DNA from: a virus
Taxonomy: Duplodnaviria > Heunggongvirae > Uroviricota > Caudoviricetes
Virus record (IMG/VR): IMGVR_UViG_2880372215_000004
Length of the DNA stretch: 64,000 bases
Direction: 5' to 3' (one strand)
Shown here: positions 27,034 through 47,621 of the stretch, piece by piece
Layout of the letters: each line of letters starts with the position of its first letter
How positions within the stretch are numbered: position 1 is the first letter of the stretch
Made by a program: the position numbers and the translations under genes
Notes under the pieces: model-generated
Databases searched by the model: none
What the model was told of the DNA's origin: nothing
Seen by the model: only the letters and a program-made list of their open reading frames with translations

Positions 27034-27597
27034 GTGCTGACAACGCAAAAACGAAAATTTGCGCTGGCGCTCATGTCCGGGAAAAACAAAACAGCGTCAG
27101 CCATTGCCGCTGGTTATTCGGCGAAGACCGCCAGGGTTAAAGGCTCGCAGCTGGCAAAAGATCCGGAGGTGCTTGCGTTTATAGCCCGTAAACAATGCGA
27201 GACGGTGGAGGTGGATGAGGTTCCTGTTTACCGGCAGAAAAAATCAGAGCAGGAGGATAAACCCCGTCGCCGTGAGGCGGCTGCAATACCACAGCCGGAC
27301 GAAAACAATCCGGAGATGCCACCGTCCGCGGTGATGTCTCCTGGTATTGAATATATGGAGGATGGTCTTCCCGATCCGGTGAAAGCGATGGGGCGTCTTC
27401 TGGTGGAGAACATTAATACCGACCCCAGGCTGGCGCTGGATGCGGCTTATAAGCTGGCGCAGTTCACGCACCATAAAAAAGGGGATGCCGGTAAAAAATC
27501 GGCAAAAGGTGACGCGGCGAAAAAAGCGGCTAACCGTTTTGCGGTGCCACCACCACCCCGCCTGGTGGTGAATAATGATAATGAGGGCAACGGATGA
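27034..27597 (+). CDS. terminase small subunit, 187 aa, GTG start
   Basis: ORF track; GGAGGAGG before GTG; ATGA coupling to large-subunit start. Confidence 0.7.
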   Translation: MLTTQKRKFALALMSGKNKTASAIAAGYSAKTARVKGSQLAKDPEVLAFIARKQCETVEVDEVPVYRQKKSEQEDKPRRREAAAIPQPDENNPEMPPSAVMSPGIEYMEDGLPDPVKAMGRLLVENINTDPRLALDAAYKLAQFTHHKKGDAGKKSAKGDAAKKAANRFAVPPPPRLVVNNDNEGNG

Positions 27598-29236
27598 TAC
27601 CTGTGTGGAGCACGGCCTGCCCGGACTGGGCAGAGCGCCTGAAAAAGGGGCTGTCGATTATTCCGGCTCCGATTTATCCGGACAGGCTGCACATGCACTG
27701 GCGATTTTTAAACAACTGCGATTGTGGATGCACCGGGTAGCCCGACATTCGGGGAGTCCTGCGCACCGTGGGTGTTTGACCTGGTGGCGGCCCTGTTTGG
27801 CTCCTACGATGCGCAGACCGGTGTTCGCCATATCAAGGAAGTTTTATCCTTATCCCCAAGAAAAACTCGAAGTCCACGCTGGCTGCGGGATCATGATGAC
27901 GGCGCTGTTACTGAACTGGCGGCAGGCGGCGGGCTACACCATTCTGGCCCCGACCGTGGAGGTGGCGGCTAACGCCTTCAACCCTGCCAGGGATATGGTA
28001 CGACGGGACGATGATCTGGATGACCTCTGTCAGGTGCAGACACATATCCGGACCATCACCCATCGGGTGACGGACACCACCCTGAAGGTGGTGGCTGCCG
28101 ATCCGAATACGGTGTCCGGTATCAAGTCCGTGGGGACGCTGATTGATGAACTGTGGTGTTTGGCAAGCAGTACAAGCGGAGACATGTACGTGAAGCCATC
28201 GGCGGCTTGCCTCCCGCCGGAAGGGTTTGTGGTGTATACGACCACCCAGTCGAATGAACCGCCCGCCGGGGTGTTCAGACAGAAACTGCAGTATGCCCGG
28301 GATGTCGCGACGGCAAAATTCATGATCCGCACTTTCTGCCGGTGATTTTTGAGCATCCTCCTGAAATGGTGGAAAGCGGGGCTCACCTGCTGATGGAAAA
28401 CCTCGCCATGGTTAACCCGAATCTCGGTTATTCGGTGGATGAGGCTTTCTGTACCGGGAGTACCGTAAAGCCCGGGAGGCTGGTGAGGAAGCATTTCGTG
28501 GCTTCATGTCAAAACATGCCAATGTGGAAATTGGTCTTGCCCTGCGTTCTGACCGCTGGGCGGGCGCGGATTTCTGGGAGCAGCAGGGCAGGCGCGTCAG
28601 CCTGGACGATATCCTGCAGCGCGCTGATGTGGTGACGGTGGGGATTGACGGCGGGGGCCTGGATGATCTGCTGGGAATGTACGTGATTGGCCGTGACAGG
28701 GAAACCCGCGAATGGCTGGGCTGGGGCCATGCCTGGGCGCATGAAACCGCGGTGGTCGACGGAAGAGCGAGGCGTCCCGGTTTCAGGATTTGTGCCTGTG
28801 GAGATATGACGATTGTCCGTCGGTCGGGGATGACACGGCGGAAGTGGCGGAATATGTGCGTCGCATTCATGAGGCTGAGTTACTGGACATATCGGTATTG
28901 ACCCGTCAGGGTGGGGCAGATTCTGGATTCACTGGCGGAAGCCGGGATCCCCGACGGAATGTGGTGGGGATAAGCCAGGGCTGGAAACTGGGCGGGGCCA
29001 TTAAAACCACCGAGCGCAAACTGGCTGAAGGGGTGCTGATGCATGGTGACCAGCCCCTGATGGCCTGGTGTGTCGGCAATGCCCGGGTGGAGCCTAAAGG
29101 TAACGCCATTCTTATCACCAAACAGGCCAGTGGACGGGGAAAAATTGACCCGCTGATGGCGCTGTTCAATGCGGTCTCCCTGATGTCCCTTAACCCGGAA
29201 CCGAAAAAGAAAGAATATGCGGTTTTTTTCATATAA
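27594..29236 (+). pseudogene. terminase large subunit, reading frame broken into at least six pieces
   Basis: Terminase-like peptides alternate between frames in ORFs 27724.., 27575.., 28342.., 28506.., 28790.. Confidence 0.7.
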
Positions 29237-29299
29237 CCCTGTTCACACTGTAACCATCATGAACCGCTGCGGCGGTTTTTTTATTTTCAGGAGGCTGAT

Positions 29300-46950: not shown

Positions 46951-46975
46951 AACCGGAGTCCGGCTCCGGTTTTTG
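46951..46975 (+). terminator. rho-independent terminator (AACCGGAG-tccgg-CTCCGGTT plus TTTT)
   Basis: 8-bp stem and T-run; a near-identical copy lies at 51024-51048. Confidence 0.75.
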
Positions 46976-47090
46976 TTGTCATGTAAGGCAGATGTTTGTT
47001 AAAGCTATTTAAGTCTGGAGTTTAAATTAAAATAGGGAGTTTTATAATGCCGTTAAATTCGGAGATTAGATCAAGCTCATTTTTAATGGA

Positions 47091-47621
47091 TTGAATGTCC
47101 TTCGAGCTCAAGTAGCATCTAGCGGTCGAGGGGAGTTTACATTAGGTAATGAGACTGTCAGCATTGTATTTAATGAAACCGATGGGCGTTTTCTATCCAG
47201 CGGCAGTAGTGGGGGATTGCTTACTGAGTTATTCCTTTATGGGTTTAATAACGGCCCTGAAGCTCTTCGCGATAGGATGCTCAGTATGCTTTCGGACTCA
47301 GGTGAAGCACAATCGCAAGAGAGTATTCAGGACAAAATATCTCAATGTAAGTTTCCTGTTAGTTCAGGAAATTTCCAGTGCCCGCCAGAGTCTATTCAGT
47401 GTCCAATTACACTAGAGAGACCCGAAGAAGGAGTGTTTGTCAAAAATTCAGATAGTTCGGCAGTATGCTGCTTATTTGATTTTGATGCATTTTCTCGTTT
47501 AGCTAGTGAAGGCTCATATCATCCACTGACCCGAGAACCAATAACGGCATCAATGATTATAAGTCCTGATAAATGTGTTTATGATCCTATCAAGGGAAAC
47601 TTCATTATAAAAGATAGTTAA
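47091..47621 (+). CDS. nleG: NleG-family type III effector (U-box), 176 aa as listed; N-terminus frameshifted from ATG 47047
   Basis: C-terminal QCPITLERPEEGVFVKNS...GNFIIKDS; 47047 frame MPLNSEIRSSSF stops after a T5 run. Confidence 0.7.
   Translation: MNVLRAQVASSGRGEFTLGNETVSIVFNETDGRFLSSGSSGGLLTELFLYGFNNGPEALRDRMLSMLSDSGEAQSQESIQDKISQCKFPVSSGNFQCPPESIQCPITLERPEEGVFVKNSDSSAVCCLFDFDAFSRLASEGSYHPLTREPITASMIISPDKCVYDPIKGNFIIKDS

Follow-up and report, generated by a model that had tools for sequence, protein, structure and literature searches.

Inactivating lesions, in head and tail genes among others, are known from the lambdoid prophages that make up the defective prophage pool of Escherichia coli O157 strain Sakai (Asadulghani et al. 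2009, PMC2669165). Repeats such as those formed by related prophages are also where consensus and polishing errors persist or arise (Wick and Holt 2022, PMC8812927). Both observations bear on the 64,000-nucleotide (nt) stretch analysed here (IMG/VR record IMGVR_UViG_2880372215_000004; the window), a lambdoid prophage of E. coli O157:H7 whose insertion site adjoins ttcA. A first-pass annotation of this window had noticed that single-base frameshifts cluster in late and effector genes while early genes and an AT-rich island are intact, and had proposed either systematic sequencing error or genuine prophage decay. We conclude that the 26 single-base deletions in the late genes are very probably artefacts of a consensus drawn from mixed reads of co-resident prophages, and that the source prophage almost certainly has intact terminase large subunit (TerL), portal, major tail and tail fibre genes, as its clonal siblings do.

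The closest described elements are two sibling prophages, likewise adjacent to ttcA, in strains NCCP 15739 (NZ_CM167680.1, 2,602,789-2,666,800) and 2009C-3554 (NZ_CP034803.1). They share with the window the gene order from int/recET to nleF, 100% identity outside the affected blocks, the nleG frameshift and the truncation of L with K and I missing. Unlike the window, they encode an intact TerL of 553 amino acids (aa), a portal of 859 aa and a major tail subunit of 238 aa, and their tail fibre, from which the window also differs, is read as open reading frames (ORFs) of 437 and 89 aa. Relative to these siblings 26 bases are missing from the window and 55 are of paralogue type. The 20.7-kb late region as a whole is matched in 5001 of the 5426 complete E. 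coli genomes; NCCP 15739 is the best match at 99.6%, and the top matches all exceed the window in length by 17-26 bases.

A base-by-base alignment of window positions 13000-61700 with NCCP 15739 gives 55 substitutions, 26 single-base deletions and one single-base insertion, and all 82 differences fall within 27682-36200 except for one deletion at 46536. Nineteen of the deletions are in TerL, two in the portal gene, four in the major tail gene and one in the tail fibre gene, and the same 26 are seen when the window is compared with 2009C-3554. No differences occur in 1-27681, and none in 36201-63705 save 46536. Positions 1-13712, from int, xis, recT and recE onward, are 100% identical to NCCP 15739, where these genes are annotated as complete, and 61187-64000 hold one difference, a G-run deletion at 63706. 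Around 53 kb of the window matches the sibling at every base, and the clustering of the differences is far beyond chance. The early annotation that recE, recT, the methyltransferase, the ATPase, the tape measure and J are intact is borne out by sibling identity and annotation, the methyltransferase/ATPase island, tape measure and J showing no differences at all. The frameshift sites it named in TerL, portal, major tail, tail fibre and nleG all exist, at most 1-2 nt from where they had been placed, although portal 32792 and major tail 35961, 35969 and 36200 were missed.

The contrast first drawn between late or effector genes and early genes is really one of copy number, multi-copy against single-copy sequence. 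About 18 places in O157 genomes match the late region, four match TerL and 9-13 the tail-fibre segment, while the methyltransferase/ATPase island is essentially single copy. The early genes and the AT-rich island are clean because they have no close paralogue.

We aligned the window and the sibling with eight paralogous copies of the late operon, taken from Stx phages and other O157 prophages, and asked which alignment columns vary, letting each gap slide inside its homopolymer run. All 26 deletions fall on columns where a paralogue differs from the sibling, against a null fraction of 0.144 (P about 1e-22). In places the window reads as the reference minus its variable bases. The reference AA[G/A]GCGGA[A/G]GACATG[C/T]TACG becomes AAGCGGAGACATGTACG, GGAT[T/C]TTGT[G/T]GCCTG becomes GGATTTGTGCCTG, GGG[G/T]GA becomes GGGGA and TTG[C/A]CCCC becomes TTGCCCC. 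The substitutions behave in the same way, with 54 of the 55 showing a base present in a paralogue and the 55th also lying on a variable column (55/55 on variable columns). Most of those in coding sequence (44 of 53, 83%) are at codon position 3, which argues that they are alleles of functional genes under purifying selection rather than random miscalls.

None of the late-gene deletions that were searched for recurs elsewhere. For TerL, the best of 2955 copies in 1254 genomes is 98.4% identical, a value that corresponds to the 19 gaps and a few mismatches, and in phage records the TerL region measures 1716 nt in 93 of 93 cases against 1697 in the window. In complete E. coli genomes, the deletion at 32536 is absent from all 2902 portal copies and that at 46536 from all 6023 tail-fibre copies; the best match is 99.5% identical in each case, which means that every copy has the extra base. 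The major tail deletions were checked by exact product only, and that product is unique. Three frameshifted products, ASL59419.1, ASL59430.1 (the exact major tail product) and ASL59438.1 (the exact tail fibre product), each occur once among about 15 billion proteins, and all three are on a single 5,483,726-bp contig with RAST-style names. Since these GenBank proteins match the shifted frames, the deposited record itself is without the bases.

Together these observations make it extremely unlikely that the late genes of a living strain accumulated independent single-base deletions by genuine decay. Decay would suit the commonly defective state of O157 prophages (PMC2669165), and this prophage does carry real lesions common to its relatives, namely the nleG frameshift, a truncated L without K and I, and a frameshifted DUF4014 gene. 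Yet decay would have to place 26 deletions in the late genes and no point differences in the roughly 53 kb of flanking sequence, each deletion exactly 1 nt long and on a paralogue-variable column, and the TerL, portal and tail-fibre deletions are common to no other genome searched. Nor is there any sign of relaxed selection. The substitutions keep their third-position bias, all indels are of 1 nt (26 deletions to one insertion), and a single N inserted at each of the 26 sites is enough to reopen every ORF with no stop.

Sequencing error of the ordinary kind, in which a long-read or flow-based platform miscalls homopolymers irrespective of repeats, is also very unlikely. Several sites do lie in runs (G5, G6, C5, G4, T4), as does the deletion at 63706, in a G6 run. 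However, the deleted base stands in a run of length 1 at 12 of the 26 sites and in runs of three or more at only seven, and on these run lengths a model of homopolymer error alone was rejected. The 53 kb of error-free window includes AT-rich parts, and those homopolymer sites that are affected coincide with paralogue differences as well (GGG[G/T]G, [C/A]CCCC, G6/G5). The errors stand, moreover, beside paralogue-derived substitutions.

The alleles of several paralogues are interleaved on a scale of tens of bases. TerL has 62 positions that separate the sibling from phage Stx2a_WGPS6. The window follows the sibling at 26 of them and the phage at 20; at 15 it has a deletion, and at one a third base. 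With nine possible parents, a minimum of 15 parental switches is needed in the 1.66 kb of TerL and five in the major tail gene, while the capsid block needs none. As the capsid block also has no indels, indels occur only where the consensus is chimeric.

Interleaved alleles might also arise if co-resident prophages had truly recombined (homeologous recombination, gene conversion) and the 1-nt losses were scars of aberrant heteroduplex mismatch processing. Heteroduplex mismatches would fall exactly on paralogue-variable sites, and patchy repair could interleave alleles, as far as can be reasoned. Exchange between prophages is common in O157, the prophage loci L002 and L003 differ in mosaic blocks at the same locus, and the capsid block of the window is a clean replacement. 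We nevertheless regard this account as scarcely credible for the deletions. To our knowledge, no pathway of mismatch repair removes the mismatched base. Conversion tracts are usually far coarser than a pattern that needs at least 15 switches in 1.66 kb, four essential genes would have been destroyed at once, and the result is present in a single assembly only. Were it true, recombination between diverged repeats would leave a kind of mutational scar not described before, and a single event would have inactivated the structural genes of the recipient prophage.

We favor the explanation that, in the assembly of an E. coli O157:H7 chromosome, the late operon was put together from mixed reads of several co-resident prophage copies, 95-99% identical to one another. 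Where the copies agree, the consensus would be correct. Where they differ, the local base would be kept, the base of a paralogue taken, giving an apparent substitution, or no base written, giving an apparent deletion. The missing base may have dropped out during consensus calling or polishing, or it may have been recorded as an ambiguity code and stripped before deposit. The original EDL933 assembly (AE005174), known for its more than 6,000 ambiguous bases (PMC4132626), was considered as the source and rejected, since the window contains no ambiguous letters and sides with NCCP 15739 at the early-region differences given below. An earlier assembly of NCCP15739, an Illumina draft in scaffolds (PMC5292798), is not supported as the source either. 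Single-copy parts, that is, the early genes, the methyltransferase/ATPase island and the effector island, would have had unmixed pile-ups and come out free of error. The differences are confined to multi-copy sequence, lie on positions that vary between copies and combine alleles into chimeras that no natural copy shows, as is expected of an artefact arising in repeats.

Several points weigh against this explanation. The mixed pile-ups, and the software step that would have dropped the bases, are things we infer rather than see. The paralogues that define the variable columns were taken from other strains, not from the source genome, and the columns of two deletions, 36200 and 46536, are variable in one sampled paralogue only. 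The clean capsid and gp10-gp17 blocks, with no switches, could be real recombination in the source strain. Lastly, the deletion at 63706, which shortens G6 to G5 relative to NCCP 15739 in a DnaT-like replication gene ("early") of the neighbouring prophage, recurs, within the same 200-nt sequence, in one further complete genome (2009C-4687). Either a real deletion or a homopolymer miscall made in both genomes could explain it, and as it is common to another genome, not every 1-nt difference need be an artefact.

The features discussed are collected in Table 1. From its 5' end the prophage runs through int, xis, recT and recE to the AT-rich methyltransferase/ATPase island, the lysis genes, TerS and TerL. 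The protease-capsid fusion, portal, head-tail and tail genes, tape measure, J, lom and tail fibre follow, and the 3' end of the window holds an effector island (nleG', nleA, nleH1-2, nleF) and the start of a neighbouring prophage. The late-gene identities are supported by Pfam, and the whole is an ordinary, already annotated O157:H7 lambdoid prophage.

Table 1. Late-region and effector features of the window, with window coordinates and state relative to sibling or reference copies.
Feature	Coordinates	Strand	State
TerL	27594..29236	+	Reference 553 aa; at least 4 ORF fragments through 19 single-base deletions: 27682, 27720, 27842, 27886, 28156, 28176, 28180, 28186, 28205, 28216, 28305, 28444, 28757, 28791, 28793, 28821, 28887, 28910, 28956
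Prohead protease/major capsid fusion	29300..31237	+	645 aa, intact; Pfam Peptidase_S78 and Phage_capsid
Portal	31449..34026	+	Reference 859 aa; three ORFs through deletions 32536 and 32792; Pfam Phage_portal
Intergenic T run	35539..35546	+	One T longer than sibling; equals the allele of paralogue L003
Major tail subunit	35568..36280	+	Reference 238 aa; deletions 35852, 35961, 35969, 36200
Tail assembly chaperone pair G/T	36286..36965	+	Slippery A AAA AAG at 36649-36655; identical to sibling
Tape measure	37017..40097	+	Intact, no differences from sibling
Truncated minor tail L, with junction lacking the rest of L, K and I	40431..41055	+	Annotated as incomplete in siblings
J (tail tip/host specificity)	41056..44532	+	Intact
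Tail fibre	45351..46934	+	Deletion 46536 (C5 to C4) joins reference ORFs of 437 and 89 aa into one of 527 aa
nleG-family effector pseudogene	47047..47621	+	1-nt gap in the T run 47080-47084

The lesions take a different form from gene to gene. In TerL, whose reference protein carries the Pfam domains TerL_ATPase and TerL_nuclease, alleles from at least two paralogues are interleaved. The capsid fusion gene has the allele of another copy (the type seen in L003 and L004) throughout, with nine substitutions relative to the sibling and no indels. In the major tail gene the deletions at 35852, 35961 and 35969 sum to -3, so that the ORF persists with about 39 codons scrambled, and the fourth, at 36200, alters the C-terminus. 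The tail fibre deletion lies at a C/A paralogue-variable site that heads the C run, and it fuses ORFs rather than breaking one. The frame between the 437-aa and 89-aa ORFs is open, which is why the loss of a single base joins them. In the reference tail fibre, the 437-aa ORF ends in a Phage_fiber_C domain and the 89-aa ORF, one base on and in the +1 frame, has a second copy of it.

The portal deletion at 32536 turns G5 into G4 at a G/T paralogue-variable site inside the G run, and that at 32792 turns G6 into G5. The G5 allele at 32792 was considered as a new lesion and rejected, being the normal allele in 6 of 10 compared copies, those in which the portal is read as two ORFs. With the longer T run at 35545, it makes two of the 27 indels that are not errors of length, as both are normal alleles elsewhere. 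The portal gene has two natural forms in O157 prophages, G6 with one 859-aa ORF and G5 with two ORFs that overlap by an ATGA stop-start (window 32785-32815; 13375-16121 in locus L009). The G5 form is annotated as two ORFs in one Stx1 phage record and as "frameshifted" by PGAP in an EDL933 assembly. The Pfam portal domain is matched by the first ~380 aa of the portal only, and the 3' half of the ORF (32973-33566) holds direct repeats of ~162 bp in at least three copies, 88-92% identical, which would be in-frame repeats of 54 aa.

Other lesions in the window are inherited. The T run of nleG is one base short of that in an intact homologue that is 82% identical, and in the best matches that were sampled, from about 425 genomes with at least 99% identity (EDL933 and 86-24 included), the 611-nt nleG region is identical at every base. 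The gene is annotated as frameshifted in RefSeq. Its T3SS_NleG domain is present on the downstream frame (Pfam, E = 1.3e-45) and the N-terminal 12 codons are in another frame, so the NleG effector is not encoded by an uninterrupted ORF. The frameshift thus marks a genuine, lineage-wide and already annotated pseudogene. At the L junction (40793-41056) the window has 263 nt where the EDL933 prophage L003 has 2520 nt, which hold the remainder of L followed by K, I and sodC. The shortening of L and the absence of K and I are likewise genuine and common to relatives, and this deletion alone should make the tail defective. A DUF4014 gene at 12108-12325 (12897-13114 in locus L011) carries a frameshift in the annotation of the sibling, and its sequence in the window is the same. 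Genuine pseudogenes are thus not wholly absent from the early region. The alternative first posed, sequencing error or decay, accordingly divides. In the late genes the deletions are very probably artefactual and not of a chemistry type, and for nleG the answer is decay. The truncated L with its absent K and I (40793-41056), the programmed G/GT frameshift site and the G-run deletion at 63706 had not figured in the earlier annotation.

A single frameshift in the region is likely to be functional. The genes of the tail assembly chaperone pair are arranged as in lambda G/GT, with the T frame, by the annotation coordinates, at -1 relative to G and a classic -1 slippery heptamer just before the G stop. 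By analogy with the established G/GT system, the shift there is expected to be a programmed -1 frameshift and not a lesion. Programmed frameshifting was considered for the flagged sites too and rejected, as homologues are single-frame at all 26 and one gene would need 19 shifts; a slippery motif in a two-frame layout is seen only at the G/T pair, which is not one of the flagged sites.

Comparison with EDL933 adds some detail on the locus. Against one EDL933 assembly the window has seven early-region differences, and at each of these it agrees with NCCP 15739. The EDL933 prophage L003 (NZ_CP120944.1 2580292-2622007) has the same early region, from the methyltransferase island to TerS, and a different late region that includes L, K, I, sodC, another J and another tail fibre. 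Its early/late junction points to an exchange between prophages or to a deletion derivative. The chromosome that carries it is 5.45 Mb, as against the 5.55 Mb reported for EDL933 (PMC4132626).

If the late-gene frameshifts are, as we believe, not a real biological feature, their biological weight is small and their use is as a quality flag. The late-gene coordinates should not be counted as pseudogenes or taken as evidence of prophage decay. Of broader use may be the signature itself, in which single-base gaps fall exactly on differences between paralogues and the alleles of paralogues are interleaved. It reveals repeats that have been collapsed or mis-polished, needs no recourse to the reads and could serve for other prophage-rich genomes.

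Set beside the O157 Stx phages and sister prophages with which it was compared, such as Stx2a_WGPS6 (AP012539.1), the Stx2c prophage of Balcarce_24.2 and the EDL933 prophage (NZ_CP120944.1), the window has the same TerS-TerL-protease/capsid-portal-tail module at 94-99% identity. These operons supply the alleles at 54 of the 55 substitution sites and define the variable columns. Unlike the window, they belong to other elements, whose early regions and cargo are different, and their genes are all full-length; none has the window's combination of alleles, the best TerL being 98.4% identical. The nleG and L/K/I lesions are of the same kind as those of the Sakai prophages (PMC2669165), which are stable and inherited, whereas the 26 deletions are confined to one assembly. 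It is the repeat errors of Wick and Holt 2022 (PMC8812927) that these deletions resemble, being limited to multi-copy sequence whose reads cannot be placed unambiguously, with unique sequence left perfect. Where that work stresses uncorrected homopolymer errors, this locus shows base drop-outs and allele swaps at the differences between copies.

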